Below are positions 1-27,374 of a stretch of 64,000 nucleotides of DNA, piece after piece. The DNA is from an uncultured Ignavibacteria bacterium (lineage in GTDB: Bacteria > Zixibacteria > MSB-5A5 > WJJR01), in contig CAZQIZ010000005.1 of NCBI GenBank assembly GCA_964593585.1, forward strand, positions 42,859 to 106,858, in the 5' to 3' direction. The first letter of the stretch is position 1; the number at the start of each line of letters is the position of its first letter. The notes beneath the pieces are model-generated. The model ran no database searches. It had not been told where the DNA came from and saw only the letters and a program-made list of their open reading frames with translations. The translations under genes and the position numbers were made by a program.

Positions 1-1716
1 GTCCAGAATCTCATAGCGCCCCAGCCGCTTCAGGCCGGAGAGATTCGGGCCGGATTGGGTCGCGAACGCCTCCGGTCCTGACGCCTGCAACTCGACCGGC
101 TCGGGCTGGTCGAGATCAACCGGCTCCGGCGAACTCGTGCGCGTGCTCGTGTGGCCTTCCACCAGCGGGACATCGCCGTCTGTCCCCGGCTCAAAGGTCG
201 GTGTCAGCGTAATGCCGGCGTTGAACTCACCGGCGGGCGCGGTCTCGCGTTGCTCCTTCGACGGGGCAGGGAAAGGGGTGCCGCTTTCCGGCGAAGCGCT
301 CAGGTTGACCGTCGGCGCCGCGGACACCTCTGGCGTGGGCTCCGGCTCGGCCGGCATGACCCGGTAGGCGCCCGATGTCGAAGCCGGCTTTTCGTCCGGG
401 GCAGAGGCCCGCTTGACCGGGCGGGTCAAGGCCACCTTCTCGTTGCTGGGTTTCACAAACGGCGCGAATGCCAAGAACAGCAGGATCTCCAGCGTGGGGT
501 AGAGCGTGTTGGTCACCAGCTTGAGCGATTGATAAAGCACAAAGTTCACGTTCAAGAAGAGCGCCGCGAAGACCATCAGCACGATCATCCGGCTGACCAG
601 ACTCACCCGCGGCAGGACCACGGCCGCAAACACCCCGATCCCAATCAGGATGAGCAAATCGAGAAACGTCGAGAATGTCACCGTGGTGATATAGCGACCG
701 GCGAGAATGTTGGCGGTCACCGTGGCCAGTTTCTCGGCGCGGGGAAAATCATCGGAGGCCGACGTGCGCAGCGTGGTGCCGTAGCCGGAGGCGGTCACAC
801 CCACCACCACGATCTTGTCGGTCAGACCCTGCAGATCATCCGACCCTTCCAGCACCTTCGCCGCCGAAATCGAGCGGCAGGTGCCGGCGGGCCCGCGGTA
901 ATCGATTCGCAGCATGCCGCCCTCATCGGTGGGAATCGCGCGTCCGGCCATCAGGACCGCTTCGCCCGGCTCGATCTTTACCTGCAACCGATCGGCGCCC
1001 GTCGCCGCGCGTGCCAGTTGCAGCGCCATCGACGGATAGTAATGGCCCTCGTAATTGACCACCAGTGGATCGCGGCGCACCTTGCCGTCCACATCCTGCC
1101 AGGTGTTCACATGCCCCAGCCCCCAGGCGGCCCGGCAGGCCTCGGCGTAGGGGAGCGTGGCGTTCAGCGATTGCGGATACGGGAAATCCAACAGCCGCGC
1201 GCCCTCGTCGATCACCACCAGACTCGACTTCGACACATATTCCGGCGCGGTCTGCGTAAAACGGCCGTCCTCCGCCAGCGTAAACCGCAGCGGCAACACC
1301 ACGTTGCCGGCGCGGTGAATCATGTCCGCCAGGAAGAGATTGCCCTGCGGGTCCTCCATCAGATCCGACGGCAGCTCTACATCCAGGCCGATAGCCTTCG
1401 GACGGTACTCGGACAGCATGCCGACCAAATAACCGATTCGTTCGGAATCCCAGGGCCAACGACCCAGTTTGTTCACCGCGTCATCGTCGATGTTGACCAC
1501 CACCACCTCGGTGGGCGGGTCGGTCTTGCGCCCCAGCGACACCATCGTGTCCTGGATGCCCAGCTCCAGCGATGCCAGCCAGTGGTGATTGTCCATGTAG
1601 AGCACGATCACCAGCAGCGTGATCAAGCCATAGAGCATAAACGGCCCGAAACGCCGCAGCAGCGTGTTCTCCTGGCGGAAGTGCATGCCGTTGAATTTGG
1701 ACGGTGCGCTTTTCAT
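1..1716 (-). CDS. CHASE2-domain membrane sensor fused to a Ser/Thr protein kinase (3' end cut by window edge)
   Basis: My translation from the ATG at 1716 stays open to base 1. It shows an N-terminal TM, CHASE2 motifs (VVVNIDDDAVNKLGRWPW, DVDGKVRR, KIVVVG), three TMs and a Pro/Glu-rich linker, then LKRLGRYEILD, the typical start of a Hanks kinase subdomain I. It is absent from the ORF track because it has no stop in the window. Confidence 0.85.
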   Translation of the reverse strand, partial: MKSAPSKFNGMHFRQENTLLRRFGPFMLYGLITLLVIVLYMDNHHWLASLELGIQDTMVSLGRKTDPPTEVVVVNIDDDAVNKLGRWPWDSERIGYLVGMLSEYRPKAIGLDVELPSDLMEDPQGNLFLADMIHRAGNVVLPLRFTLAEDGRFTQTAPEYVSKSSLVVIDEGARLLDFPYPQSLNATLPYAEACRAAWGLGHVNTWQDVDGKVRRDPLVVNYEGHYYPSMALQLARAATGADRLQVKIEPGEAVLMAGRAIPTDEGGMLRIDYRGPAGTCRSISAAKVLEGSDDLQGLTDKIVVVGVTASGYGTTLRTSASDDFPRAEKLATVTANILAGRYITTVTFSTFLDLLILIGIGVFAAVVLPRVSLVSRMIVLMVFAALFLNVNFVLYQSLKLVTNTLYPTLEILLFLAFAPFVKPSNEKVALTRPVKRASAPDEKPASTSGAYRVMPAEPEPTPEVSAAPTVNLSASPESGTPFPAPSKEQRETAPAGEFNAGITLTPTFEPGTDGDVPLVEGHTSTRTSSPEPVDLDQPEPVELQASGPEAFATQSGPNLSGLKRLGRYEILD

Positions 1717-1742
1717 AGGGATGTCCGCGGTTTGGCCTCGTG

Positions 1743-2441
1743 TCAGACGTTGTTGCCGGCGACAAAACGAAACACCGAACGACCGACCTGCAAGATGTCT
1801 CCGTTTTTCAGCGCGACCTTGTCGACCGGCTCGCCGTTGACGCGCGTCTTGTTGCGATGGCCGACGCAGGCGAGCACATAGTGGCCGTTTTCCAGCGCGA
1901 GCGTGGCCTGGATGTCGGGGACAAACCAGCCGGCGACCTTCACATTGCAGAAGCCGGCCTTGCCGAAGGTGAGCGTGCCGCCGGCCAGACGGATCTCATC
2001 GGTCGGCGCGTTCTTCTCGCCCAGCAACACCGCCACGCCGCCGGAGCGGGCGACGATCTCGCGGTCGCGGCGATCGGTCTCCACCTGCTCGCGGTGCTTG
2101 CGGGTGTTGAGCGTCATCGTGCCGTCGAGGTCCGACAACTTGGTCTCCGGCTCGACATTCGGACGGAACACCAGCGAGTACTTGCCGATGGTGATCGTGT
2201 CGCCGTCGTTGAGAATCTCCTCCTCGACCCGCCGGCTGTTGACAAAGGTGCCGTTGAGCGACTCGTTGTCGATGATCACGCAATTGTTGGGATTGATCTC
2301 GATCACCGCGTGCTTGCGCGAGACGCCGCGGTTGTCCAACACGATGTCGTTGTCGGAGTTGCGTCCGACGCTGATGCGCTTCTTTTCGGTGATCACCCGT
2401 TCGATCACCTTGTCCTCGTAGCGGACCACGATTTCCGTCAT
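1743..2441 (-). CDS. Tandem FHA-domain protein
   Basis: FHA1 is canonical (VGRNSDNDIVL, VSRKHA, SLNGTFVN); a second FHA-like domain lies at the C-terminus. SD-like GAGGGGG precedes the ATG at 2441. Confidence 0.9.
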   Translation of the reverse strand: MTEIVVRYEDKVIERVITEKKRISVGRNSDNDIVLDNRGVSRKHAVIEINPNNCVIIDNESLNGTFVNSRRVEEEILNDGDTITIGKYSLVFRPNVEPETKLSDLDGTMTLNTRKHREQVETDRRDREIVARSGGVAVLLGEKNAPTDEIRLAGGTLTFGKAGFCNVKVAGWFVPDIQATLALENGHYVLACVGHRNKTRVNGEPVDKVALKNGDILQVGRSVFRFVAGNNV

Positions 2442-2557
2442 TGCCCCCTCCAACCCAGCCCGGCGGGCGGCTCCGTCGACTCAAAAACCGCCAAACGGCA
2501 GGACTCGCCGGTACGGTTAACTCTTGGCCCGACATTGCCGATCGGGCTGGTGACACC

Positions 2558-2563
2558 TATATT
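2558..2563 (+). promoter_or_regulatory. -10 element TATATT, 7 nt upstream of the dusB ATG (putative leaderless start)
   Basis: TATATT-tctcggc-ATG with no SD motif. Confidence 0.45.
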
Positions 2564-2570
2564 TCTCGGC

Positions 2571-3650
2571 ATGCGGATCGGAAACTTGACCATTGCGGGA
2601 CAGGCCCTGTTGGCCCCGATGGCCGGCATCACCGACGTCGTATTCCGCCGGCTCTGCCGCCGTTTCGGCGCCGCGATCGTCTATTCCGAATTCCTCTCCT
2701 CCGATGGCCTGCTTTTTAACACCATGAGCCAGGAGCACAAACTGGCCTTGGCGGATGACGAGCATCCCGTTGCCTATCAACTATTTGGCGCGCGTGTGCA
2801 GACCTTTGGCCGTGCCGCCCAGATGCTTTCGGCCTACAAACCCGACCTCATCGATCTGAACTTCGGTTGCCCGGTCCGAAAGGTCGTGGGGAAAAACGGC
2901 GGCGCCTCGCTGCTGAAGGACCTCGACTTATTGGCCAGTCTGGTGAAAGAGACCGTTGATGCGGTGCCCCTGCCGGTCACGGTCAAAATGCGTGCCGGGT
3001 GGGATGACAAGACGCTGGTGCACTGCGAAGCGGCCGCGCGCGCGGTCGATGCGGGGGCGCTGGCGGTGACGCTGCATGCGCGGACCCGCGCCGATGGCGC
3101 CTGGGGGCCGAAATATGCCGGTCCCGCCAAATGGGAATACATCGCCGAACTCAAGAGGCATGAGTCGCGAGTGCCGGTCATCGGCAACGGCGATGTCACC
3201 TCCCCCGACACCGCCAAGGCGATGCTCGATCAGACCGGTTGCGACGCGGTGATGATTGGACGCGCCGCTGTGGGACGTCCCTGGATCTTCGCCGAGGTGA
3301 ATCACTTCCTCGCCACCGGTGAACGTCTCCCCGAACCATCTGCCGCCGATGTCCTGACTGTCGCCTGGCATCACATTGCCGAGAAGATCCGCGTGACACC
3401 CGAACCGCCGGCGGTGGTGGTGCGCAGTCTGCGCAAGGTGCTGGCCGCCTACATCAAGGGCTGGCCCGACTCGCACACACTGCGCGATCACCTCATGCGC
3501 ATCGAAGACCCCGAAGAGATTCGCCGCCTCTTTGCCGACTATCTGGCCGGGCACGCCGGCTTGTCGGACAACGCCGACAGCGGTTGGATTGATCAGTATC
3601 TGCCGCTGGACCGCGGCTGGATTCCCAAATCCCGGGCGCTGGTGGCCTGA
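2571..3650 (+). CDS. dusB: tRNA-dihydrouridine synthase DusB
   Basis: LAPMAGITD, DLNFGCPV (catalytic Cys), VTVKMRAGWD, VIGNGDV, VMIGRAA. The ORF-track start at 1740 is an upstream overextension. Confidence 0.95.
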   Translation: MRIGNLTIAGQALLAPMAGITDVVFRRLCRRFGAAIVYSEFLSSDGLLFNTMSQEHKLALADDEHPVAYQLFGARVQTFGRAAQMLSAYKPDLIDLNFGCPVRKVVGKNGGASLLKDLDLLASLVKETVDAVPLPVTVKMRAGWDDKTLVHCEAAARAVDAGALAVTLHARTRADGAWGPKYAGPAKWEYIAELKRHESRVPVIGNGDVTSPDTAKAMLDQTGCDAVMIGRAAVGRPWIFAEVNHFLATGERLPEPSAADVLTVAWHHIAEKIRVTPEPPAVVVRSLRKVLAAYIKGWPDSHTLRDHLMRIEDPEEIRRLFADYLAGHAGLSDNADSGWIDQYLPLDRGWIPKSRALVA

Positions 3651-4842: not shown

Positions 4843-5829
4843 ATGGCCGGTCTGTCGATTTGGATTTTTGCCCAGCAACGCAACGGCGCGGTGTCATCCG
4901 GCGCCTATGAACTGCTCACCGTGGCGCGTCGTCTGGCCGATGCCGCCGGCGGCACGGTCACCGCGGTGCTGTTCGGGCACGGTGTCGGCGATCATGCCGC
5001 CGCGCTCACCGCGCGCGGCGCCGATCGCGCGTTGGTGGCCGATGATCCGGCGTTGGCGCACTTTGTCGATGATCAATACGCCGACCTGCTCGCACGCTGG
5101 ATCGCCGCCGACAAACCCGATCTGGTCATTGGCAGCGCGACCGTCTATGGACGCGCCCTCTTCGCCCGTCTGGCCGCCCGTCTCGACGCCGGTCTGGTCG
5201 CCGACGCCGGCGGCATTGAGCTGAAGGACGGACTCCCGCATGTGACGAAGGCCACCTATGGCGGCAAGGCCTTCACGGAATACGTCTTCACGGACGCCAA
5301 GCCCTGGCTGGTCACGATGCGCCCAAAGACGTCCGAAGAATCCCAAGCGCGCGAGCCCAAAGGATCAGTCGAGGCTCGTCCCGCCGATGGTCTGGGCGCG
5401 CCGCAGGTGCATGTGGTCGCGGCCGAATCAATCGGCGCCGGCAGCGTGCCATTGACCGAGGCCGATATCATTGTCTCCGGCGGACGCGGTTTGCGCGCGC
5501 CGGAAAACTACAAGATGGTCGAGGAGTTGGCGCAGGTTCTCGGCGCCGCCGCCGGCGCCTCGCGCGCCATCGTCGATGCCGGATGGGTCCCCTACGACAA
5601 GCAGGTCGGCCAGACCGGCAAGACCGTCAATCCCAAACTCTACATCGCCTGCGGGATCTCCGGTGCGATCCAGCATCTGGTCGGCATGCAATCGTCGCGG
5701 GTGATCGTGGCCATCAACAAGGATGCCGACGCCCCGATCTTCAAAGTCGCCAGTTACGGCATCGTCGGCGATGTCTTTGCCTACCTCCCCGAGATCACCC
5801 GCGTGTTCAAGGAAAAGCTCGGCGGGTAG
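4843..5829 (+). CDS. etfA: Electron transfer flavoprotein alpha subunit
   Basis: [60 protein letters not shown]. Confidence 0.96.
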
Positions 5830-5845: not shown

Positions 5846-6751
5846 ATGCGTGTCGCCGCCATCGATCTGGGCACGTTCTCGGCGCTACTGCTGATTGCCG
5901 AGTTGCGGCGTGGACGATTGCATCCCCTCTGTGAAGAACGTCGGACTGTAGACCTCACTTGCGACCGTCATGGCCGCCTCGCCTCCGAAGCAATACGGCG
6001 CGCGCGGCGTGTGCTTTCGCAATACGAGACGCTGGCGCGTCAACATGACGTCGCTGTCGGTTCGGTGGCCGCCACCGCCGCGGTACGCGCCGCCGTCAAC
6101 CGCGCCGCCGTGGTGGAGCAACTGCGCCCGGCAACGTCGTTTCGGGTGCAGGTGCTGAGCGCCCGGCGCGAAGCCGCGCTCTCGGCGCGAGGCGCGCTGT
6201 TGGGGATTCGCGGCGCAACCGCGCAGCGACTTGTCATCGATCTCGGCGGCGGCTCCACGGAAATCGTCGAGCTCGCCTCCGGCACTTTTCGCGGCCTCAA
6301 GATCGGCGCGGCCCGCGCCACCGACCAATGGATCGCGCTCGCGCCGAAAAACCCGGCCGCGCGCGATTTGTACTACCTCGGCTGCGCCGACCGCGCGCTC
6401 CTGTCGCTGAATCCCGATGTCTTTCATGACTCCCGTGCCATCGTTGGGGTGGGAGGGACTTTGACCGCGCTGGCAGCCCTTGCCGCCGGATTGCGTCGCT
6501 TCGATGCGGGTGCGGTCCATGGCCGTGTCCTCACCGCCGACTGGATTGGCGCCACTGCCGCGACGTTGGCGCGGCTGCCAATGGCGCGTCTCCGAGAACT
6601 CCTGCCCTTTGATCCCTCGCGGGCCCGGGTGATTGTCGCTGGAACTTACCTCTGGGCCGCGGTGTTAAACCGCCTGAGCGCAAGGCGCGTGACGGTCTCC
6701 GCGCGTGGCCTGCGTTGGGGCGTGGCGGCCCAACTCGCCGGCCTGCCGTAG
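5846..6751 (+). CDS. ppx: Ppx/GppA family phosphatase (short form)
   Basis: VAAIDLGT, ATAAVR, REA, IDLGGGSTE, GVGGT, GLRWG. Confidence 0.85.
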   Translation: MRVAAIDLGTFSALLLIAELRRGRLHPLCEERRTVDLTCDRHGRLASEAIRRARRVLSQYETLARQHDVAVGSVAATAAVRAAVNRAAVVEQLRPATSFRVQVLSARREAALSARGALLGIRGATAQRLVIDLGGGSTEIVELASGTFRGLKIGAARATDQWIALAPKNPAARDLYYLGCADRALLSLNPDVFHDSRAIVGVGGTLTALAALAAGLRRFDAGAVHGRVLTADWIGATAATLARLPMARLRELLPFDPSRARVIVAGTYLWAAVLNRLSARRVTVSARGLRWGVAAQLAGLP

Positions 6752-6772
6752 CGGTTGCCGACCCTCAACCGC
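6748..6772 (+). repeat. GTAG-preceded hairpin (REP-like) overlapping the ppx stop
   Basis: GTA-GCGGTTG-ccgaccct-CAACCGC. Confidence 0.4.
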
Positions 6773-6902
6773 GACCAGAAAACCCCTTGACCAACTCCAA
6801 CTTGGGGACGACATTCGCTCCCTTACGATGCGCATGGGGGCGCTTCTGTCAGCCAGACCCGGATGCCACGACGCCTTCGGGTTCCACTTCCACCCAAACG
6901 AC

Positions 6903-9500
6903 ATGATGAGCATCTCACACACACGCACCCGCCGGCTTCGGCCGCTCGTCTGGTTTGTCATGCTGGTTCTGTTCGGGCCGGCCGTAGCATTCGCCGCCGA
7001 CCTGCCGCGCGCCTGGCAAATCGATCCGGCCGAGGACGCCTTGTCCAAACCGGCCGTGTCGACCGACACCGTGCCCGGCTCCAACAACGTCGTCGATATC
7101 ATCCACATCACCCCCGATGTCTGGGCCGCGACCGCCAAGGGACCGAGCCGTCTGACGCTGCCGGGAGAACAGTGGCTGACCTATGACACCACCGATGGCT
7201 TGCCGTCCCTTCAAGTGCCGGCGATGGGCGTCTTTCCCAACGGCGCCTGGTCCGCGACCAGCCATACCGAAGTGCGCGATGGCCGTGTGGTGACCTGGGG
7301 GGATGGCCTTTACCGCTTCAATGAGGTGAGCGAGGAGTGGGAGCGACGGACCCCGTCAAACGATCAGGCCTCCGGACCGTTTCAGTTGGCCTACGATCTG
7401 GCCTATGCGCGCGGCCGTCTGTTCGCCACCTGCTTTGCCGGCGGACTGCTGGTCAGCGACGATGATGGTCTTACGTGGGAAAACATCTTCGCCGACGGCA
7501 CCGCCCGCTCGGATTTCGAGAACAAGACCTTCAACGATCTGAACAATCGCTACTTCGCCGCGGTGGTCGACTCGACCCGTCCCGACTCCCTGGCGCTGTG
7601 GGCGGGAACCGCCTACGGCATCAACAAGATGATTTTCCTGACCGACACGCTCAAGCCGCGCGGCAAGGTCTTTCATGACCTCTATCTCGACGGGGCTCGT
7701 CTGTACGCCGCCACCGACGACGGCATGTCACGCACGCCGGACCGCGGCGGCAGTTGGCGCACCTACAATGCGCTTTACGATGGCTTCCCGTCCGATTACG
7801 TCATCTCAACCGCCGCCAAGGGCGACACCTTCTGGGTCGGTCTAGCCAGTCCTGACAACGATTCCGGATTGGGGCTTGCCTACAGTTTCAACAACGGACG
7901 CGACTGGACGGTCACCCAGCCCTTCCACGCCACCGGCCCGGGGCGACGTCCGCGGGACATCGCGTTGACACCCGGCCGCGTCTGGGTTGCATGCGAGAAC
8001 GGTGGAGTGATCTACGCCGACATGCCCGGTGTTGTGTGGGAAAACGCCCTCGGCATCGACGCGTATTCGCTTCTGCCCGCGCCGCCGGATGATCCGGAGA
8101 CTGTTTTCATCGGCACCGATGTCGGCATCTACGCCTGGCCGGTGGCGGGACCGCCGTTGCCCGGCGCTACCATGCCGATCGGCATCGAAGCCGACTCCAT
8201 CGGACAGAGGGTGATCGGCATGGGATACCAGCAGACGCCCTGCACAACCGCCTTTGATTCCGTGATCTGGGCGCTCTGTGAGCCCGGCAGCAACGGATTC
8301 GGCACCGCGGGGTTTGCGATCAGCGCCGATGGCGGCGAGACTTGGGATGTCTCATCGCGCCGACTCGGTGTGCGCGATGTGGTCTTTGAGGGCTGCCGTT
8401 ATTGGCTGGCCACCGACAGCGGCTTGGCCGAAGGCGACATCCGCAATCTCGACAGTCTCATGTTCACCGCCTCATACAGGAACATGGTCAATAACAAGCG
8501 CATCGGCGCCCAACCGCTGTCGCTGGAAGCCGAGATCGGCGAAGATGACCTGACCGGCGCCGATGTCCTCAAGACCCTCTGGGTCGGCACCGACTCGATG
8601 ATGGCGCGTACGCTGGACAAGGGCATCACCTGGGGCGTGGTCTTCTCCAACCCCAATCCCAACGACTTCGATCTGCTTGAGTTCTTCCGCTATCGCGACG
8701 ATGACACCGCCATCGCCGGGTTCGAGCAACTCTCCGGCAATTTCATCACCGCGATCGGCTTCCAGCCGGGCGGGCGCGGCACCATCTGGGCGGCCACCCA
8801 GGCCACCGGGCAGGGGCGTTTCGCCAACATCTTTACCGGATCGAAGGAGAAAGATGGCCTCTCGGTGACGCGCGATGCGGGACGGACCTGGTCGGTGCCG
8901 CTCACCGGCCATCAGATCTGGAACTTCGCCTTCGATGGCGCCATCGTCTGGGCCGCCTCCTCGCAGGGGCTGCTCTACTCGCCCGATAACGGCGTCTCGT
9001 GGGACACGATCAACACCTTTACCGATCCCGAAACCGGCGCGGTCATCGACTCGACCACCGAGGTCTTCGCGGTCGAACTGGTGGGCAATGAAATCTGGGT
9101 CGGCACCGCCAACGGCATGGCGATCCTGACACGCAACGGTCAGACCAAGGCGGTGCGTCGTGGCTTCAAGTCCGTGCAGCCGGGTGCGGCGGGCGGCGAG
9201 GGAGGGGCGTATGCCACGCCCGTGCCGTATTCGCCCAACATTTCCTCCGGCGGCATCCGCTTCCATTACACGCCGCCGTCCGACGGCCCGGTTACTATCA
9301 AGATTTACGATTACGCCAACAATCTCGTTAAGACCGTCACCGATGGCGCGCTGCGCGAAGGGGCACGGCAATACGACGAGCTCGACATTTGGGATGGACG
9401 CAATGGCGAGGGAGAGGTCGTCGCCGTGGGCACCTACTTCTTTGTCATCGAATACTCCGGCGGCGAGACGCACTGGGGTAAACTGGTGGTGATTCCGTGA
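6903..9500 (+). CDS. Large secreted Asp-box/BNR beta-propeller protein with C-terminal FlgD-Ig / T9SS-CTD-like domain
   Basis: Signal peptide ending AFA-A. Seven Asp-boxes (SDDDGLTW, TPDRGGSW, SFNNGRDW, SADGGETW, TLDKGITW, TRDAGRTW, SPDNGVSW). C-terminus PVPYSPN...VTIKIYD...WDGRNGEGEVVAVGTYFF...WGKLVVIP. Confidence 0.85.
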   Translation: MMSISHTRTRRLRPLVWFVMLVLFGPAVAFAADLPRAWQIDPAEDALSKPAVSTDTVPGSNNVVDIIHITPDVWAATAKGPSRLTLPGEQWLTYDTTDGLPSLQVPAMGVFPNGAWSATSHTEVRDGRVVTWGDGLYRFNEVSEEWERRTPSNDQASGPFQLAYDLAYARGRLFATCFAGGLLVSDDDGLTWENIFADGTARSDFENKTFNDLNNRYFAAVVDSTRPDSLALWAGTAYGINKMIFLTDTLKPRGKVFHDLYLDGARLYAATDDGMSRTPDRGGSWRTYNALYDGFPSDYVISTAAKGDTFWVGLASPDNDSGLGLAYSFNNGRDWTVTQPFHATGPGRRPRDIALTPGRVWVACENGGVIYADMPGVVWENALGIDAYSLLPAPPDDPETVFIGTDVGIYAWPVAGPPLPGATMPIGIEADSIGQRVIGMGYQQTPCTTAFDSVIWALCEPGSNGFGTAGFAISADGGETWDVSSRRLGVRDVVFEGCRYWLATDSGLAEGDIRNLDSLMFTASYRNMVNNKRIGAQPLSLEAEIGEDDLTGADVLKTLWVGTDSMMARTLDKGITWGVVFSNPNPNDFDLLEFFRYRDDDTAIAGFEQLSGNFITAIGFQPGGRGTIWAATQATGQGRFANIFTGSKEKDGLSVTRDAGRTWSVPLTGHQIWNFAFDGAIVWAASSQGLLYSPDNGVSWDTINTFTDPETGAVIDSTTEVFAVELVGNEIWVGTANGMAILTRNGQTKAVRRGFKSVQPGAAGGEGGAYATPVPYSPNISSGGIRFHYTPPSDGPVTIKIYDYANNLVKTVTDGALREGARQYDELDIWDGRNGEGEVVAVGTYFFVIEYSGGETHWGKLVVIP

Positions 9501-9514
9501 GGGGCGCATACGCA

Positions 9515-10525
9515 ATGACTCAGACCCTTGGCACTCGTCGTTGGATCGCCGCATTGACGGCGGCGCTGGCGTTCTGGCCGGTGGGCGTGGCGGCACAGGA
9601 GGACGGCGGCCAGCCGGGCGCGATGCTGGATTGGAGCGTCGGCGCGCGCGCCGTCGCCATGGGCTCGGCCTTCACCGCCACCGCCGAAGGCCCCAGCGGC
9701 TCCTGGTGGAACCCGGCCGGGATCGCGCAGACCCGTCAGGACGCCATCGAAATGGCGCTGCGCAAAATGTCCTTCGACCGGCAGGCCGGATATGTCAACT
9801 ACATCCATCCCTTCGGCCGCGAGGAAGCGGCGATGGGGTTCTCGTGGATCTACGCCGGTGTCGGCGACATCTTCGCCCGCGACATCGACGGCCAGATCGG
9901 CGGTGAGATCTCCGATTACTCCAACGCCTTCGCTTTCACCTTCGCGCGCCGGTTTACCGAACGAACCGCGCCGACCGCCATATCCCTCGGCGTGAATCTG
10001 CGCTATGTCCAGCACAACATCGCCAACATCAGCGCCTACACCGTCGGCTTCGACCTCGGAGCGCAGTTGCGCCACCGCATGCTCAAGCGCGGCATGGCTG
10101 CCGACGCCATCCCCAACGAACTGCGGCTTGGCGTGGCGGTCCAGCGGCTCAACCAGAAATACCCCTGGACCACCAGCGACTATTGGATCGAGGAAGGGGA
10201 ATCAGGGGGATCGTCGTTTGATGAGAAATTTCCGGTGGTGGTGCGCGGCGGAGTGGCGGCGCTTTTGTTCGATGGGCGCGCGCTCGGCGCGGTCGATGTG
10301 AAAGTCGACGCCGACCGCGGTGCGACCGTGCACGTCGGCGCCGAAGGCCGCTTCCGCGAACTGATCGCGGTGCGTGCCGGCGTCGATGACGGCCGTCTCA
10401 CCTTTGGCGGCGGGGTGGAGCCGCGGGCCTCCAGCCGCGTGCGTTTTGTGCTCGACTACGCCTTCGCGGTGCAGCCCGATGAGATTGACGCCGAGCATGT
10501 CTTCTCGCTGGGTGTGCGCTTCTAA
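9515..10525 (+). CDS. PorV/PorQ-family outer-membrane beta-barrel
   Basis: Signal peptide, VGARAVAMGSAFTA, WWNPAG, alternating beta-strands, terminal HVFSLGVRF. Confidence 0.85.
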   Translation: MTQTLGTRRWIAALTAALAFWPVGVAAQEDGGQPGAMLDWSVGARAVAMGSAFTATAEGPSGSWWNPAGIAQTRQDAIEMALRKMSFDRQAGYVNYIHPFGREEAAMGFSWIYAGVGDIFARDIDGQIGGEISDYSNAFAFTFARRFTERTAPTAISLGVNLRYVQHNIANISAYTVGFDLGAQLRHRMLKRGMAADAIPNELRLGVAVQRLNQKYPWTTSDYWIEEGESGGSSFDEKFPVVVRGGVAALLFDGRALGAVDVKVDADRGATVHVGAEGRFRELIAVRAGVDDGRLTFGGGVEPRASSRVRFVLDYAFAVQPDEIDAEHVFSLGVRF

Positions 10526-10540
10526 CGAATGCGGAACGGG

Positions 10541-11467
10541 ATGTCGACGATGCGATCGCTCACACGCTGTGCCGCCGGACTTGTCATTGCGGTCGTTTCA
10601 TTGGTTGCGACGACCCGGAGCGCCGCGGCGCAGTCGAGCGCGACCGACCCCACCGGTTTTCGCTTCCTGACCATCGGCGGCGGCGCCCGCGCGGTGGCGC
10701 TGGCCGAAACGATGGTCGCCGACGCCGAAGATCCCTTCGCCACGGAGTACAATCCCGCCGGATTGGTCGGTATTCCGAAGACCGTCCTCTCGTTTGTCCA
10801 TAACGTCTATTTCCAGGACACCCGCGGCGAATACCTCGCGGTGGCGGTGCCTTGGCAGAAGTGGTCGTTCGGCGCGCGGGTGGCCTACCTGGGCACCGGC
10901 GATATCCCCCGGCGCACCGGCCCCTCGCAGGACCCGATCGGTTACTACGATGCAGCCAGCGGCATCTTCCAGGCCGCGATCGGCCGTATGGTCGATGAGC
11001 GGCTCTCGGTCGGGCTGTCGGCCGCGTATGTGCTCGAGCACATCGAGTCAGAGACCGCGCAAAACGCCATCCTCGGCCTGGGGGCGCGGTACCGAATCCA
11101 TCGCAACTTTCACTTCGGCATCGCCTTCACCAACGTCGGCCCCAAGGCCAAGTTCATCGAGCGCGAGTTCAAGATGCCCAACCGGGTCCACGTCGGCGGC
11201 GCCTGGAGCCGTGAACAACTCTCTCTGCGCGGCGAGTTTTTTGCGGCCGAGGACGAAAACCTGCACTGGCATTTCGGCAGCGAGTACACCCCCGATCCGC
11301 GTCTGGCGCTGCGCGCGGGAGTGCGCCTCGGCTATGACACCCAGACCTTCAGCGCCGGCGCCGGCATTCGCACCGCCGATCAGCGCTTCGGCGTCGATTA
11401 CGCCTTCGCGCCCTACTCCGACGATCTGGGCAGCACCCACCGCTTCGGCCTGACTGTGCGTCCGTAA
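10541..11467 (+). CDS. Second PorV/PorQ-family outer-membrane beta-barrel
   Basis: Signal peptide, FLTIGGGARAVALAE, YNPAGL, LALRAG, DYAFAPYSDDLGSTHRFGL. Alternative starts at 10529 and 10550. Confidence 0.85.
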   Translation: MSTMRSLTRCAAGLVIAVVSLVATTRSAAAQSSATDPTGFRFLTIGGGARAVALAETMVADAEDPFATEYNPAGLVGIPKTVLSFVHNVYFQDTRGEYLAVAVPWQKWSFGARVAYLGTGDIPRRTGPSQDPIGYYDAASGIFQAAIGRMVDERLSVGLSAAYVLEHIESETAQNAILGLGARYRIHRNFHFGIAFTNVGPKAKFIEREFKMPNRVHVGGAWSREQLSLRGEFFAAEDENLHWHFGSEYTPDPRLALRAGVRLGYDTQTFSAGAGIRTADQRFGVDYAFAPYSDDLGSTHRFGLTVRP

Positions 11468-11486: not shown

Positions 11487-11517
11487 TTGACGCTTCCGGC
11501 GGTTGGCGGTTTATAAC
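11487..11517 (+). promoter_or_regulatory. sigma70-like promoter for the membrane cassette
   Basis: TTGACG (11487-92) and TATAAC (11512-17); the 19-nt spacer is long. The ATG follows 4 nt later with no SD. Confidence 0.4.
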
Positions 11518-11521
11518 CCGC

Positions 11522-12385
11522 ATGCGCCGGCGGCTCCGTGTTCTGACAGCCCTCTCGCTTTGCGGCTTCCCGGCCGTGGCGATGGCCGGGACGCGTGATG
11601 TCACACCGGCGCTGGTCGTTCAGACTCAACGCCTGCCCGAACTCATCGCAATTGTCCTGGTCATCGCCGCGGCCTTCATCGCCGGCCGGCTGGTGAAACG
11701 GCGCGGCGCGCCGGCGCTGCGTCCCCTGCCGCCGCTTGATGCCCTGCCCGATGCTATCGGACGCGCCACCGAAACCGGCACGCCGGTGGTCTACATCACC
11801 GGCTGGGGGGGCGACATGGGACGTCCCACCACCATGGCCTCGATGCAGATTCTCTCGCATGTGGCCCGACAATCCGCGCAGTACAATTGCCGCCTGCTGT
11901 TTCCCAGCCACGATCCGGTGATCGCGCAGGTCGCCGATGACACGATCACGCAGGCGGCCTCGCTGGCGGGACGCCCGGAGTGGAAGGCGCTGACCGCCGC
12001 GACCTTCGTCACACAAAGCCAGTTCGGCTACGCCGCCGCGATCGAGGGAATCGTCGCGCGCGAACATCCCGGCGCGGTCCTGCTTCTGGGCACCTTCGAG
12101 GGCGAGGCGTTGATCCTCGCCGAGGCGGCGCATCGCTCCGGCGCGGTCACCATTGCCGGCACCGATTCGACCATCCAGCTGTCGTTTTTCCTGGTCGCCT
12201 GTGACTACACTCTGATCGGCGAGGAGCTATTCGCGGCCTCGGGTGTTCTCTCCGGCGATGCGCGCACCCTCGGCGCGCTCTGGGCGCAGGACTGGCTGAA
12301 GTACCTCGCGCTGGCCATCCTGCTCTGCGGCGCTCTGGTCCTGCGGCTTGCCGCCTATGACGCCGGTCCGTGGCTGGCGAAATGA
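11522..12385 (+). CDS. DUF6754-like membrane-anchored protein of unknown function
   Basis: N-terminal hydrophobic segments; conserved-looking core (LDALPDAIGRATE, QFGYAAA, EALILAE, QLSFFLVACDYTLIGEELFAA); C-terminal TM. The family name is from recall and needs an HMM check. Confidence 0.75.
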   Translation: MRRRLRVLTALSLCGFPAVAMAGTRDVTPALVVQTQRLPELIAIVLVIAAAFIAGRLVKRRGAPALRPLPPLDALPDAIGRATETGTPVVYITGWGGDMGRPTTMASMQILSHVARQSAQYNCRLLFPSHDPVIAQVADDTITQAASLAGRPEWKALTAATFVTQSQFGYAAAIEGIVAREHPGAVLLLGTFEGEALILAEAAHRSGAVTIAGTDSTIQLSFFLVACDYTLIGEELFAASGVLSGDARTLGALWAQDWLKYLALAILLCGALVLRLAAYDAGPWLAK

Positions 12386-12392
12386 ATCGACG

Positions 12393-13022
12393 ATGAATCT
12401 CCTGCGCGACCGCCTCACCATTCTGACCGCCGCCACCGCCGGTGTCTTCATGGTCGTGCAGTACTTCGTCACATCGCCGGGGATGGATGCGACCTACCGC
12501 GCCATTCTCAACTGGATGCAGGTGATCTTCGCCTGCGCCTTGATGGTCGGCATCGCCGCGGTGGTGAAAAACCACTTCGTCCGCCTCCGACGCCGTCCCG
12601 CCGAACGGCTGTATTCGCTGGTGCTTTTGGCTTCGGTGGCGGCGATGGCGCTGATGGGGTTTTCCGGCGGCATCGATCAGGGCTCGTCGTTTCTTTGGGC
12701 CTTCAATCATCTGCAGGCGCCGATGCAGGCCACGGTCTTTTCGCTTCTGGCCTTCTATGTGACCTCGGCGGCCTTCCGCGGATTCCGCGCCCGCTCGGTG
12801 GAGTCGGCGGTGCTCATCGCCGCCGGGTTGATCGTACTCATCGGGCGAGTCCCATTGGGCGAGCAGATCAGCGCGCAATTGCCGGCGGTGGCCGAGTGGA
12901 TTGTCAATGTGCCGGCGCTGGCCGCCAAACGCGCCATCCTGATCGGTATCGGGCTGGGAATGGTCGCCACCGCCCTGAAAGTCATCGCCGGCGTCGAGCG
13001 CACCTACTTGGGGGGACGGTAG
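12393..13022 (+). CDS. Polytopic membrane protein of unknown function (cassette gene 2)
   Basis: About 5-6 hydrophobic segments; PMQATVFSLLAFYVTSAAFRGFRARS, LIGRVP, KRAILIG. Starts 7 nt after gene 1. Confidence 0.85.
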   Translation: MNLLRDRLTILTAATAGVFMVVQYFVTSPGMDATYRAILNWMQVIFACALMVGIAAVVKNHFVRLRRRPAERLYSLVLLASVAAMALMGFSGGIDQGSSFLWAFNHLQAPMQATVFSLLAFYVTSAAFRGFRARSVESAVLIAAGLIVLIGRVPLGEQISAQLPAVAEWIVNVPALAAKRAILIGIGLGMVATALKVIAGVERTYLGGR

Positions 13023-13023
13023 G

Positions 13024-13824
13024 GTGCGCGCGCGCCGGATCATCTTTGCGCTGCTGGCGATCGTGATGATCGCCGTCATGATTTGGCGGCCGCGGCTGCC
13101 GATCACCGTCACCGATTCCACCCGCGCCGTCTTCGCCATGATCGAAGCGCTCGACTCGAACGCGGTGGTGATGATCTCCTTTGATCACGAGGCCTCCAGT
13201 CTGCCCGAGATCGGTCCGATCGGCGCGGCCATCGCCGATCACTGCTTCCGTCGCGGCATCAAAGTGGTCGGGCTGGCGCTGTTTTCTGAAGGAAATGCCA
13301 TCGGCTATGACCTGCTCTCCCGCCGCGCCATACGGCAGGGGAGAGAGTACGGCGACGACTGGATCTACCTCGGCTTCCGTCCGCAGTACACCGCCGCCAT
13401 CCTCGGAATAGGGGAGAACATCGGCGATGTCTTCGCCACCGACTATCTCGGCGCGCCGCTGTCCCGTCTGCCGCTGGGCGCGCATGTCCGCAACTACGAG
13501 GACATCGATCTGGTGGTCTCGGTCGCCGATGGGTCGATGCCGACCTATTGGATCGAATACGCCGCCAATCGCTACGGTGAAAAGGTCGTCGCGGCGCTCT
13601 CGGCGGTCATGGTAACCTCGTTTACGCCCTATCAGGAATCCGGGCAACTGGCCGGCATCCTCACCGGATTGAAGGGCGCCGCTGAATACGAGCAACTCCT
13701 GCAATCGCCCGCCGCGGGTGTGCGTGGCATGGCGGCGCAGTCGGCCGCGCATGTGCTGATCGCCTTCCTCGTGCTCTGGGGCAACATCGAGGCATGGCGC
13801 TCCCGCAAACGGAGGGCCGCCTGA
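13024..13824 (+). CDS. Membrane-anchored protein of unknown function (cassette gene 3)
   Basis: GTG start 1 nt after gene 2. N- and C-terminal TMs flank a soluble domain (EYGDDWIYLGFRP, SGQLAGILTGLKGAAEYE). Confidence 0.85.
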   Translation: MRARRIIFALLAIVMIAVMIWRPRLPITVTDSTRAVFAMIEALDSNAVVMISFDHEASSLPEIGPIGAAIADHCFRRGIKVVGLALFSEGNAIGYDLLSRRAIRQGREYGDDWIYLGFRPQYTAAILGIGENIGDVFATDYLGAPLSRLPLGAHVRNYEDIDLVVSVADGSMPTYWIEYAANRYGEKVVAALSAVMVTSFTPYQESGQLAGILTGLKGAAEYEQLLQSPAAGVRGMAAQSAAHVLIAFLVLWGNIEAWRSRKRRAA

Positions 13825-13825
13825 G

Positions 13826-14416
13826 ATGTGGTGGGAAACCACGATCACCGCGCTGCTGACGCTGGCCATCTACACCATTCTGGTCGGCGACAATCCGATC
13901 TACAAATTCGCCGAGCATCTCCTGCTGGGTCTGTCGATCGGGTACTCGCTTGTGGTGACGGTCAAATCGATTCTGATCCCGCAGACGATCTCGCCGCTGG
14001 GAGAGGGCCAATGGGCGGCGTTGATCCCGGTGATTCTCGGCTCGGCGATGTTTCTGCGTGTGCATCCCCGCCTGGCCCCCTGGTCGCAGATTCCGCTCGC
14101 GCTCTTGATCGGCGCCGGCGCAGGCGCGGCCATCCCGGCGATGATGCAGGCACGGGTGCTCAAGCAGACCGCCGCCACCATCTCCGGCAGTGGCAGCGTC
14201 GATGGCGTGATCATTTTGTTGGGCGTGCTGGTGACGCTGATGTATTTCGTCTTCACCTGCCGTCACACCGGCGCCTGGGGCCGGGCCGCCGTCGCCGGGC
14301 GGTACTTTATGATGATATTCTTCGGCGCCACCTTTGCGTATACGGTAATGTCACGCATGGCGCTCCTGATCGGGCGTCTCGAGTTCCTACTGTCCGACTG
14401 GCTCGGCGTGATCTGA
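13826..14416 (+). CDS. Polytopic membrane protein of unknown function (cassette gene 4)
   Basis: Starts 1 nt after gene 3; about 6 TMs; TLAIYTILVGDNPIYKFAEHLLLG, MIFFGATFAYTVMSRMALLIGRL. Confidence 0.85.
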   Translation: MWWETTITALLTLAIYTILVGDNPIYKFAEHLLLGLSIGYSLVVTVKSILIPQTISPLGEGQWAALIPVILGSAMFLRVHPRLAPWSQIPLALLIGAGAGAAIPAMMQARVLKQTAATISGSGSVDGVIILLGVLVTLMYFVFTCRHTGAWGRAAVAGRYFMMIFFGATFAYTVMSRMALLIGRLEFLLSDWLGVI

Positions 14417-14439
14417 TCCGATGCACGGAACCCACGACG

Positions 14440-14583
14440 ATGATCTGCCCCCGCTGCCGCCGCGCCATGGTCGAGCAAAAGCGGGTCTTCCACGGACGCC
14501 GCAAATGGATCTGCCCGGTCTGCAAGAAGGTCCGGTTTCAGAGCGTGCGCCCTCCCCGATCGCGCAAGCCCGAGCACGAGTAG
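14440..14583 (+). CDS. 47-aa basic Zn-ribbon microprotein
   Basis: MICPRCRRAMVEQKRVFHGRRKWICPVCKKVRFQ...: two CxxC pairs with Zn-ribbon spacing. Confidence 0.6.
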   Translation: MICPRCRRAMVEQKRVFHGRRKWICPVCKKVRFQSVRPPRSRKPEHE

Positions 14584-15371
14584 CCCGTCGGTATCCGGAG
14601 GTCCGTGTCGGCACCAGCGGCTACTCCTTCGCCGACTGGGTGGGCTCCTACTATCCCGCCGGGATCGCGCGCGGCCGCATGTTCGACCACTACGCCACCG
14701 ATTTCGACACCGTCGAAATCAATTCCACCTACTACGGCATCCCGAGCGCGAAGGTGTTCGCCAACATGGAACGCAAAAGCCCGCTGGCGTTCGAGTTCCT
14801 TGTCAAGACCCACGGCAGCTTCACCCACCAGCGCGACCAGGCCGAAGCCAACATTCCGTCGCTTCTGGAGGCGGTCGCGCCGTTGCGCGAGGCCGGCAAA
14901 CTGCGCGGCCTGCTGGCCCAGTTCCCGTACTCCTTCCGCCATGCCCCCGCCAACCTCGACTATCTGCGTCGCCAGAATGACCGACTGGCGGGAATCCCGC
15001 TGTTCGTCGAATTTCGTCACGACAGTTGGCTGCGTCCGGAAGTGAAGGAGGCGTTGCGTCAGGCGCACATCGGCTACTGCAACGTCGATGAACCGCCCCT
15101 GCCGCATCTGCTGCCCCCCGAAGCCGCGGCCACCACACCGGTGGGGTACATCCGTCTCCATGGACGCAACGCCGCGCAGTGGTGGGAGGGCGGCGCCGAG
15201 CGGTACAACTATCAATACAGCGACGACCAACTGCGCGAATGGGTCGGACGTCTCGACTCCCTGCGCGCCCAGACCGACCGCATCTACGTCTTCTTCAACA
15301 ACTGCCACCTCGGCCGCGCCGTCCGCGACGCCCACCGCTTCCTCGAACTGCTGGGCGAGGAAGACGCGTGA
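14505..15371 (+). CDS. DUF72 (YecE-like) TIM-barrel protein
   Basis: VGTSGYSFADW, FDTVEINSTYY, LAQFPYSF, VEFRHDSW, YIRLHGRN, YNYQYS, YVFFNN. The nearest in-frame ATG is 14505 (also 14421), so the start is uncertain. Confidence 0.88.
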   Translation: MDLPGLQEGPVSERAPSPIAQARARVARRYPEVRVGTSGYSFADWVGSYYPAGIARGRMFDHYATDFDTVEINSTYYGIPSAKVFANMERKSPLAFEFLVKTHGSFTHQRDQAEANIPSLLEAVAPLREAGKLRGLLAQFPYSFRHAPANLDYLRRQNDRLAGIPLFVEFRHDSWLRPEVKEALRQAHIGYCNVDEPPLPHLLPPEAAATTPVGYIRLHGRNAAQWWEGGAERYNYQYSDDQLREWVGRLDSLRAQTDRIYVFFNNCHLGRAVRDAHRFLELLGEEDA

Positions 15372-23157: not shown

Positions 23158-23233
23158 GGGCCCATAGCTCAGCGGTTAGAGCTGCTGACTCATAATCAGT
23201 AGGTCCCAGGTTCGAGTCCTGGTGGGCCCACCA
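23158..23233 (+). tRNA. tRNA with CAT anticodon, most likely tRNA-Ile2 (lysidine)
   Basis: Full cloverleaf; loop CTCATAA; acceptor GGGCCCA/TGGGCCC with C4-G69 and C5-G68 (TilS determinants in E. coli); encoded CCA. It is not an initiator tRNA. Confidence 0.9.
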
Positions 23234-23314: not shown

Positions 23315-23391
23315 GGGCGATTAGCTCAGTTGGTTAGAGCGTTCGGTTCACATCCGAAAGGTCACTGGTTCAAGTCCAGTATTGCCCACCA
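23315..23391 (+). tRNA. tRNA-Val(CAC)
   Basis: Acceptor GGGCGAT/ATTGCCC; anticodon arm TTCGG-TTCACAT-CCGAA; T-loop TTCAAGT; encoded CCA. Confidence 0.93.
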
Positions 23392-26967: not shown

Positions 26968-27374
26968 CGGATCGGTAGGTGAGGCGGCCGCGTCCGCAGC
27001 GCCCCTGGGCGCCGGCGGATGAGGAAAGTCCGGGCTCCACAGAGCAGGGTGCCAGCTAACGGCTGGGCGGAGCAATCCGACGGAAAGTGCGACAGAGAAT
27101 TACCGCCCCGTCCCGCGCAAGCAGGATGGAGCAAGGGTGAAAAGGTGGTGTAAGAGACCACCGGCGTCGCGGGCAACCGTGGCGGCCGTGTAAACCCCAC
27201 CCGGAGCAAGGCCAAGCAGGGAAGAGGAGTCGCTCGCTCCGATTGATTCCCGGGTCGGCTGCATGACCGTACTGGCGACAGGACGGCTCAGATCAATGGC
27301 CGCCATTCCCCGTCGGCGGCGGGCTTGCCCGCCGCAGCGGTGACACAGAACCCGGCTTACCGCCTGCCGATCCG
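26968..27374 (+). ncRNA. rnpB: RNase P RNA (bacterial type A)
   Basis: GAGGAAAGTCCGGGC (27021), GGTGTAAGAG, GTAAACCCC, GAGCAAG, ACAGAACCCGGCTTA; the ends CGGATCGGTAGG / CCTGCCGATCCG pair as P1. Confidence 0.96.

Follow-up and report, generated by a model that had tools for sequence, protein, structure and literature searches.

Pfam entry PF20539 (DUF6754) covers a single protein family and assigns no function to it, and no paper mentioning either DUF6754 or PF20539 was found in the published literature. Among the described membrane machines with which this family and its partners can be compared, the Nqr and Rnf complexes contain small, oppositely oriented subunits of six transmembrane helices (NqrD/E or RnfA/E), and the GldG-type ABC auxiliary proteins and Wzz-type polysaccharide co-polymerases are built of a cytoplasmic N-terminus, a transmembrane helix, a periplasmic domain, a second transmembrane helix and a cytoplasmic C-terminus. 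The 64-kb stretch of DNA from an uncultured Ignavibacteria bacterium analysed here, called the window in what follows, carries on its plus strand, at 11522-14416, a cassette of four genes, g1 to g4, the first of which encodes a full-length member of the DUF6754 family. The cassette resembles no characterised system detectable here, g2 and g4 having been compared by sequence and profile only. There is good support for g1-g4 being a co-evolving, self-contained evolutionary unit, for their products being the subunits of one inner-membrane complex with about 16 predicted transmembrane helices (2 + ~6 + 2 + ~6), and for the window cassette being the smallest form of a family that is widespread and uncharacterised.

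The four genes are co-oriented and separated by gaps of 7, 1 and 1 nt, as read directly from the sequence and its open reading frames (ORFs), in agreement with a preliminary description of the locus (Table 1). The 2+2 architecture proposed there, with two proteins carrying a soluble domain between membrane helices and two polytopic ones, was borne out by the AlphaFold2 models of g1 and g3 and by the hydropathy of g2 and g4. Likewise, the Walker A motif, Fe-S Cys cluster and heme CxxCH reported as missing were not found in a motif scan of the four window proteins, which also contained no CxxC, GxGxxG or [ST]GA[ST]. The start of g2 was placed at ATG 12393, and not at the TTG at 12348 offered by the ORF list, because the family alignment of 63 sequences begins there. 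The G+C content is even across the cassette region (0.64-0.66) and therefore gives no hint of a foreign insert, and all window genes from 1740 onward are co-oriented. The best homologues of the cassette proteins are named as Zixibacteria (Zixiibacteriota) or just as 'bacterium', which makes a Zixibacteria-like metagenome-assembled genome the probable origin of the window, and the source names of the homologues are all 'hypothetical' or 'DUF6754 domain-containing', save two labels for g4, so that the earlier statement that a function is assigned nowhere holds.

Table 1. Coordinates of the cassette, of the promoter-like element and of the genes immediately upstream, in positions of the window.
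Feature	Position	Strand	Description and basis
g1, DUF6754 protein	11522-12385	+	287-aa ORF; Pfam PF20539 match; AlphaFold2 model
g2, polytopic membrane protein, ~6 transmembrane helices	12393-13022	+	209-aa ORF; hydropathy; alignment of 63 orthologues (A2)
g3, Rossmann-like domain between two transmembrane helices	13024-13824	+	266-aa ORF, GTG start; AlphaFold2 model; alignments A4 and A7
g4, polytopic membrane protein, ~6 transmembrane helices	13826-14416	+	196-aa ORF; alignment of 68 orthologues (A3)
Promoter-like element	11487..11517	+	TTGACG, then 17 nt and TTTATA, or 19 nt and TATAAC
BNR/sortilin-like protein, 931 aa	within the trio 6705-11467	+	ends in a FlgD_ig/CHU_C-like C-terminal domain of type IX secretion system (T9SS) type
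Two PorV/PorQ-family outer-membrane barrels	9497-10525, 10529-11467	+	NCBIfam PorV_fam, 96.6 and 131.8 bits

The strongest argument for the unity of the cassette came from its conservation in two independent sets of loci. The first set was obtained by a scan of one genome per GTDB species with the g1 alignment as query, from which the loci of the best 80 of 542 relatives were kept and to which four loci from an exact protein look-up were added, the gene order being judged by tblastn, BLASTP and hidden Markov model (HMM) searches; the second consisted of metagenome contigs found with long-form g1 queries, 80 loci out of 591 relatives being kept. The order g1-g2-g3-g4 on one strand was complete in 72 of the 74 genome loci long enough to judge, the exceptions (L058 and L069) showing g1-g2 without a recognisable g3 or g4, and the full cassette was present in 51 of 53 such metagenome loci, the other two carrying an orphan g1. 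The overall figure of 123 complete loci out of 127 answers the neighbourhood check proposed in the preliminary description, with the four genes co-conserved in order. According to the record titles, the named hosts are Zixibacteria, uncultured 'Ignavibacteria', GN15, Latescibacteria, WOR-3, Stahlbacteria and Poribacteria, and look-ups of representative proteins extended the list to Ca. Brocadiia (Planctomycetota) and Armatimonadota, in both of which the cassette is likewise complete. In all, at least eight bacterial phyla, mostly uncultured, maintain the intact cassette. In the distant loci (Brocadiia, Armatimonadota, Poribacteria), HMMs built from Zixibacteria gave 229-268 bits for g2 and g4 and 312-350 bits for g3. 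The occurrence of such sets in several uncultured bacteria, mentioned in the preliminary description, was thus found, whereas the archaea mentioned there with them were not seen in 164 loci or among the named hits. Partial 16S rRNA genes were noted on the minus strand of two WOR-3 loci (L069:1-1061 and L080:1-651), about 5-6 kb from the cassette.

Head-to-tail repeats of the entire cassette, in two or three copies, occur in many loci (L067, L070, L073, L077, L078, L079, L132, L153 and others) and imply that the subunits co-evolve as sets; the repeated g1 genes differ mainly in the length of the N-terminal extension. Orphan g1 genes occur in L081, L124 and L144, the one in the Brocadiia locus L081 being a second g1 of 1276 aa which follows an OmpA-like gene. 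Variation was also observed at the g2-g3 junction: in one locus (L040:8543-9724) a membrane-anchored protein, by eye like a SpoIIE/PP2C-type phosphatase, is inserted between the two genes, and four others (L037, L049, L053, L061) hold 0.3-0.5 kb of extra sequence there.

The HMM comparison of g1 with Pfam gave PF20539 at E = 1.4e-74 and 250.9 bits (cut-off 27), covering profile positions 6-247 of 257, which turns the DUF6754-like character noticed in the preliminary description into membership of the family. The protein is composed of a signal-peptide-like N-terminus, about 17 periplasmic residues, a transmembrane helix at ~38-58, a Rossmann-like domain at ~70-245 and a C-terminal transmembrane helix at ~257-279. 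Its AlphaFold2 model, computed with 91 sequences, reached a predicted local distance difference test score (pLDDT) of 88.0 and a predicted template modelling score (pTM) of 0.83, and a Foldseek search of this model against the PDB retrieved only generic Rossmann folds (among them FtsZ, RCK domains and LOG-like TM1055). The residues invariant throughout the family are found in GRATEMG, SQF.Y, ESLILAETG, GAIQIAGT and QLPFF..ACDYTLIGEEL.AAS; GWGGD, a glycine-rich loop following beta-1, is confined to the clade of the window and is not kept in the wider family. The cytoplasmic domain of g1 is the most conserved part of the cassette, with a mean column identity of 54% compared to 37-41% for g2-g4.

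A profile search of 1.84 billion representative proteins gave 2386 clusters at 50% identity for the g1 family at E ≤ 1e-3, and 933 at E ≤ 1e-30. Among 147 newly retrieved representatives DUF6754 is always C-terminal, the median length is 536 aa and 138 proteins exceed 350 aa; the N-terminal extensions of the relatives begin with a signal peptide, are highly variable and measure 100-1000 aa. Long-form members even outscore the window g1 on the Pfam model (E about 1e-115). The window g1 is thus a minimal form, most relatives carrying long variable periplasmic extensions. As to the nature of these extensions, Pfam detected fn3 in one relative (P0366) and another (P0368) is named an FN3 protein by NCBI; a third (P0451, 1272 aa) shows by eye a series of beta-sandwich repeats like those of carbohydrate-binding modules, a region in which Pfam and PDB searches found nothing. 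The arrangement, variable N-terminal extracytoplasmic regions on an invariant C-terminal module, recalls the logic of autotransporters; however, the DUF6754 module is a helical and Rossmann-like unit of the inner membrane with three partners and not an outer-membrane beta-barrel, and the window copy has no passenger.

The g3 protein consists of an N-terminal transmembrane helix, a Rossmann-like alpha/beta domain predicted to be periplasmic, a C-terminal transmembrane helix and a strongly basic cytoplasmic tail (RSRKRRAA), and its AlphaFold2 model (101 sequences) had a pLDDT of 94.5 and a pTM of 0.89. The conserved residues SFDHEASSLPE, GFRPQ, SVADG and GLKGAAEYE are located at the C-terminal ends of the strands. 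In the models g1 and g3 are each a Rossmann-like three-layer domain bracketed by two membrane helices, and they show the same order of elements: a transmembrane helix, one helix, six beta-alpha units and a long C-terminal transmembrane helix. As for g1, the PDB structures retrieved by Foldseek for g3 were only generic Rossmann folds (among them SDR, LDH, Moco-carrier proteins and GT-B halves); for the two models the best E was about 2e-3 (2.4e-3 for g3), with no match at E ≤ 1e-3, the query-normalised template modelling score did not exceed 0.38 and the top target-normalised score was 0.54. The g3 protein had no match in Pfam or NCBIfam and its relatives matched no Pfam family above noise; ILEI, which appeared in 16 of 70 relatives, was rejected, the match spanning ~30 residues with ~15 bits against a cut-off of 27. 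The predicted topology of g3 is that of the GldG-type and Wzz-type proteins, but no ABC_transp_aux, Wzz or GNVR assignment was obtained for its relatives, and the modelled domain is a compact six-stranded Rossmann-like fold. In two Stahlbacteria/WOR-3 loci (L066:1144-3066 and L068:3678-5606) the region matching g3 ends a stop-free frame of ~640 aa overlapping g2, in which about 100 repetitive, charged, helix-like residues (AEYQ/KYAGEE repeats) precede the conserved C-terminal half; this stretch may be an insertion in the periplasmic domain.

For g2 and g4, hydropathy indicated about six transmembrane segments each. The 63 orthologues of g2 share the motifs PMQATxFSLLAFFVASAAYRGFRAR and GIERTYLGG, and the 68 orthologues of g4 share LYRDNPxYKFAEH and GATFGYTVMSRxSLLIGR. 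Both window proteins contain one Cys, which is not conserved, and conserved acidic residues inside the transmembrane helices are few. Sequence and profile searches gave no Pfam, NCBIfam or PDB match for either window protein, and comparison of half-proteins revealed no internal or cross repeats. The 859 homologues of g4 are unnamed except for two labelled 'lipoprotein signal peptidase' (JGI), a label which was rejected because none of the 68 g4 relatives matches Peptidase_A8. Matches of g2 to TMD0_ABC and Acyl_transf_3, each in 11 of 63 relatives, were treated as hydrophobic noise.

The topology was predicted from the numbers of lysine and arginine residues averaged over the family alignments. 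The 15 residues following the first transmembrane helix of g1 contain 4.9 of them on average, and in the relatives a signal peptide and a long extension precede this helix, for which reasons g1 is predicted to have its N-terminus outside, a cytoplasmic domain and a C-terminal tail outside. The basic N-terminus of g3 and the 4.0 basic residues among its last nine point to both termini in the cytoplasm and a periplasmic domain. With its N-terminus inside, the cytoplasmic loops of g2 would have 10.8 basic residues, versus 4.2 on the others, and the protein is accordingly predicted to have both termini inside and six transmembrane helices; in g4 the balance (8.1 versus 4.8) favours both termini outside, opposite to g2. 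This distribution predicts opposite sides of the membrane for the Rossmann-like domains of g1 and g3, and an antiparallel insertion of g2 and g4. Such a two-faced, antiparallel layout is unusual.

The paralogy of g1 with g3 and of g2 with g4, for which a check had been suggested in the preliminary description, did not emerge: BLASTP gave E of at least 3 for both pairs, and hhalign gave probabilities of 4.6% and 0.6% for g1/g3 with two alignment sets and 0.6% for g2/g4. By sequence comparison the four proteins are thus four distinct families, although the identical order of secondary-structure elements makes a very remote relationship between g1 and g3 possible. Neither were they recognised among known systems. 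When the PDB was searched by sequence, with the single proteins and with profiles for each of the four families, chance hits or none were returned; none of the four mapped to a characterised transporter in Pfam, NCBIfam, PADLOC or PDB profiles, or by Foldseek for g1 and g3, and none matched any PADLOC defence family. In its list of parts the cassette looks like ABC and ECF importers, with two different membrane subunits of ~6 transmembrane helices and with one cytoplasmic and one periplasmic alpha/beta domain predicted; unlike these importers, it has no Walker A/B or ABC signature and no match to ABC_tran, BPD_transp, EcfT or ECF-S, and its alpha/beta subunits are anchored by two helices each, only one of them facing the cytoplasm. 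In detail, GxxxxGK[ST] does not occur in g1-g4, no ABC_tran or other P-loop family was found in Pfam or NCBIfam, and BPD_transp, ABC2_membrane, EcfT/CbiQ and ECF-S gave no consistent match among the 63 g2 and 68 g4 relatives at E ≤ 0.1, the hits being scattered noise. No Pfam or NCBIfam match to TRAP (DctQ, DctM, DctP or TAXI), TTT (TctA, TctB, TctC) or Mrp antiporter families was obtained for g1-g4, and for the last the size (~200 aa) and number of the subunits do not fit either.

Across the loci only g1-g4 are constant, and the flanking genes change. In 49 loci labelled as Zixibacteria or Ignavibacteria, genes for a sugar-ABC binding protein and for two permeases of the MalFG type are found upstream in divergent orientation, and the downstream side is occupied by DUF72, an ABC ATPase, an ABC-2 permease and an S11 carboxypeptidase. 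Of these the window has retained DUF72 and the S11 peptidase, but no such ABC genes occur within its 64 kb. The WOR-3 loci have acyl-CoA dehydrogenases and NTP_transferases upstream and DUF4388, several unknown genes and ExbB/ExbD downstream, and the neighbours in other phyla are unrelated. A longer operon was recognised in 18 of the 48 loci whose upstream sequence was long enough, those of Brocadiia and Armatimonadota among them, in the order small membrane protein, ~130-aa protein, GlmL/MutL-type ATPase, a protein called g0 here, none to two Tll0287-like proteins, g1-g4. The ATPase is of the GlmL/MutL type with an actin fold (PF13941, E about 1e-124); no paper on PF13941 was found, and a broader literature search for 'GlmL' or 'actin-like' gave nothing relevant. 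The g0 protein (~375 aa) has a biotinyl/lipoyl-like barrel-sandwich N-terminus, with weak matches to RnfC_N and NQRA_N (19-23 bits, cut-offs ~25), and a KOW-like C-terminus. Tll0287-like heme-c proteins (CxxCH) stand between g0 and g1 in some loci, and a Memo-like gene is found downstream in a few. These accessory genes are on the same strand, often overlapping, in many lineages other than Zixibacteria (L082, L096 at 520-3506, L104, L114, L153 and others). None of them (ATPase, g0, heme-c, Memo-like) was found in the window, where the cassette has no recognisable energy module; a weak tblastn match of g0 at 5656-5814 was discarded, the ORF there reading like electron-transfer flavoprotein alpha.

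The favoured guess for the function of the four products, and a tentative one, is a transport or translocation complex. In such a complex g2 and g4 would form a membrane core of 12 helices, g3, whose conserved acidic and polar residues are situated on the usual ligand-binding crest of the fold, would handle a ligand on the periplasmic side, and g1 would couple or regulate on the cytoplasmic side; in other lineages the upstream GlmL/MutL-type ATPase and the barrel-sandwich protein may supply energy or regulation. The ligand would more likely be an envelope or glycan-type molecule than a simple ion, because of the variable periplasmic g1 extensions (FN3-like in some), the sugar-ABC and sugar-nucleotide neighbours and the small number of intramembrane acidic residues. 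Several points weigh against a transport role. The physical association of the four products is deduced from genetics only and their topology from the positive-inside rule only; neither g2 nor g4 yielded a transporter family, a repeat or a signature; a search of the window and of 10 distant loci with Rfam brought up no riboswitch close to the cassette, and hence no pointer to a ligand; the neighbours differ between phyla; the window copy has neither the ectodomain nor the accessory ATPase, so that these clues may not apply to it; and long variable ectodomains on a conserved membrane base are equally typical of anchors or sensors. An envelope anchor, scaffold or trans-membrane signalling platform, which would hold, place or report on the variable periplasmic domains of g1 and the periplasmic domain of g3 and move no substrate, is indeed the nearest alternative, though on balance an unlikely one. 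The C-terminal module of g1 together with g2-g4 would then be the membrane base passing the periplasmic state to the cytoplasmic domain of g1, whose high conservation suits a docking surface. The constant position of DUF6754 behind extensions of up to ~1000 aa agrees with this, as do the different ectodomains borne by tandem cassettes and orphan g1 paralogues and the presence, in some neighbourhoods, of OmpA-like, ExbB/ExbD, sensor-type Tll0287-like heme and SpoIIE-like phosphatase proteins. On the other hand, the window copy and its whole clade have no ectodomain and yet keep all four genes, which argues for a core function independent of the ectodomain; no output domain (kinase, cyclase, HTH) is fused or consistently adjacent, and the ~12 polytopic helices of g2 and g4 are many for a mere anchor.

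Invariant polar residues at strand C-termini, in g1 (GRATE, HDP, SQFGYAAA, LAETG, AGT, CDYTLIGEEL) as in g3 (SFDHE, GFRPQ, ADG, KGAAEYE), could also belong to a membrane-bound enzyme whose substrate would be a lipid or glycan intermediate of the envelope and in which one or both Rossmann-like domains (g1, g3) would serve catalysis or bind a cofactor. The likeness found by Foldseek to nucleotide-binding Rossmann folds (FtsZ, RCK, SDR/LDH, LOG/Moco-carrier, GT-B halves) and the sugar-nucleotide, GFO/IDH/MocA oxidoreductase, sulfatase and polyprenyl synthase genes adjacent in some phyla are in favour of such an enzyme; it is nevertheless improbable, since the structural likeness is weak (scores given above), no catalytic signature and no GxGxxG was seen, and the g1 loop GWGGD is not conserved in the wider family. 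Very little probability is given to a cofactor-poor relative or analogue of the ion-translocating Rnf/Na+-NQR complexes. The resemblance of the predicted architecture lies in two ~200-aa subunits of six transmembrane helices predicted in opposite orientation, similar in size to NqrD/E or RnfA/E, in the bitopic periplasmic and cytoplasmic subunits predicted beside them and, in some lineages, in the NqrA/RnfC-like barrel-sandwich N-terminus of g0 and the Tll0287-like heme-c proteins. No homology was detected, however: Pfam Rnf-Nqr matched none of the window proteins and none of the 131 relatives (0 of 63 for g2, 0 of 68 for g4) at E ≤ 0.1, g2 and g4 have no conserved Cys to bind a 2Fe-2S cluster, g1-g4 contain no [ST]GA[ST] flavinylation motif, CxxC, Fe-S or heme motif, no NqrB/RnfD equivalent is present, and neither the window nor the majority of loci has g0. 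It would be just as surprising if the four products formed no complex and were merely syntenic membrane proteins with separate roles. The genetic nature of the evidence for association, the orphan g1 genes and the two loci with g1-g2 only would allow it, but order and adjacency are kept in nearly all loci across several phyla while the flanks change, the gaps are of 1-7 nt and whole cassettes are duplicated as units.

With respect to transcription, a promoter-like element precedes g1, its TTGACG at 11487-11492 and its -10 block separated from the g1 ATG by about 5-6 nt. The window has a single match to the pattern TTGAC-N17-21-TATAA versus 0.03 expected, and in three diverged relatives (L001, L002, L062) the blocks ATTGACGC and GTTTATA are kept at a constant spacing from the start codon, the spacer around them not being conserved. 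A standard sigma-70 scan called 0 sites, the element failing its criteria. As the -10 block ends only ~6 nt before the ATG, a leaderless g1 transcript is plausible. Read-through from the upstream PorV-like gene is also possible, this gene being co-oriented and ending only 54 nt from the cassette. The promoter of its own claimed for the cassette in the preliminary description is therefore retained as a unique, conserved TTGACG/TATAAC pattern, but not as a site called by the sigma-70 scan nor as the sole possible source of transcription.

The PorV pair and the BNR protein upstream accompany the cassette only in L001, L002, L062 and, in part, L003; with the association limited to the nearest relatives, a functional link to these PorV/T9SS-like genes was rejected. 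Downstream, between g4 and DUF72, an unlisted ORF of 47 aa (MICPRCRRAM...CPVCKK, with a basic tail) at 14440-14583 on the plus strand reads as a zinc ribbon and is kept at 50-74% identity in more than 20 related loci, staying in L060 directly beside DUF72 rather than g4. The N-terminal extension of the long ORF 14421-15371 overlaps this small ORF in a different frame, the Pfam DUF72 match within the long ORF starts at residue 78, and for this reason the true start of DUF72 is probably near 14600. Elsewhere the window contains a bacterial RNase P RNA of class A at 26972-27374 (257 bits) and two tRNA genes (23158-23230 and 23315-23388), and the rest looks like ordinary chromosomal housekeeping sequence.

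Returning to the cassette itself, it is tempting to speculate that it represents the core of an undescribed class of bacterial inner-membrane machine, made of four families unrelated to each other and to known ones, with Rossmann-like domains on both faces of the membrane and opposite six-helix subunits, often served by an actin-fold and not a P-loop ATPase and equipped with interchangeable periplasmic domains, which would move or sense envelope or glycan molecules in FCB-, PVC- and Armatimonadota-type bacteria. Members of the g1 family occur in several little-known phyla which are abundant in sediments and groundwater, many genomes having one to three copies, and four co-evolving proteins of unknown families with an almost unbroken gene order usually constitute a basic cellular machine. 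The window copy is the smallest version (four genes in 2.9 kb, no ectodomain and no accessory genes) and as such a convenient experimental target. Should it prove to be a transporter or transducer of a new architecture, the known membrane machines would gain a class, and the handling of polymers or of the envelope in these uncultured lineages would be easier to explain.

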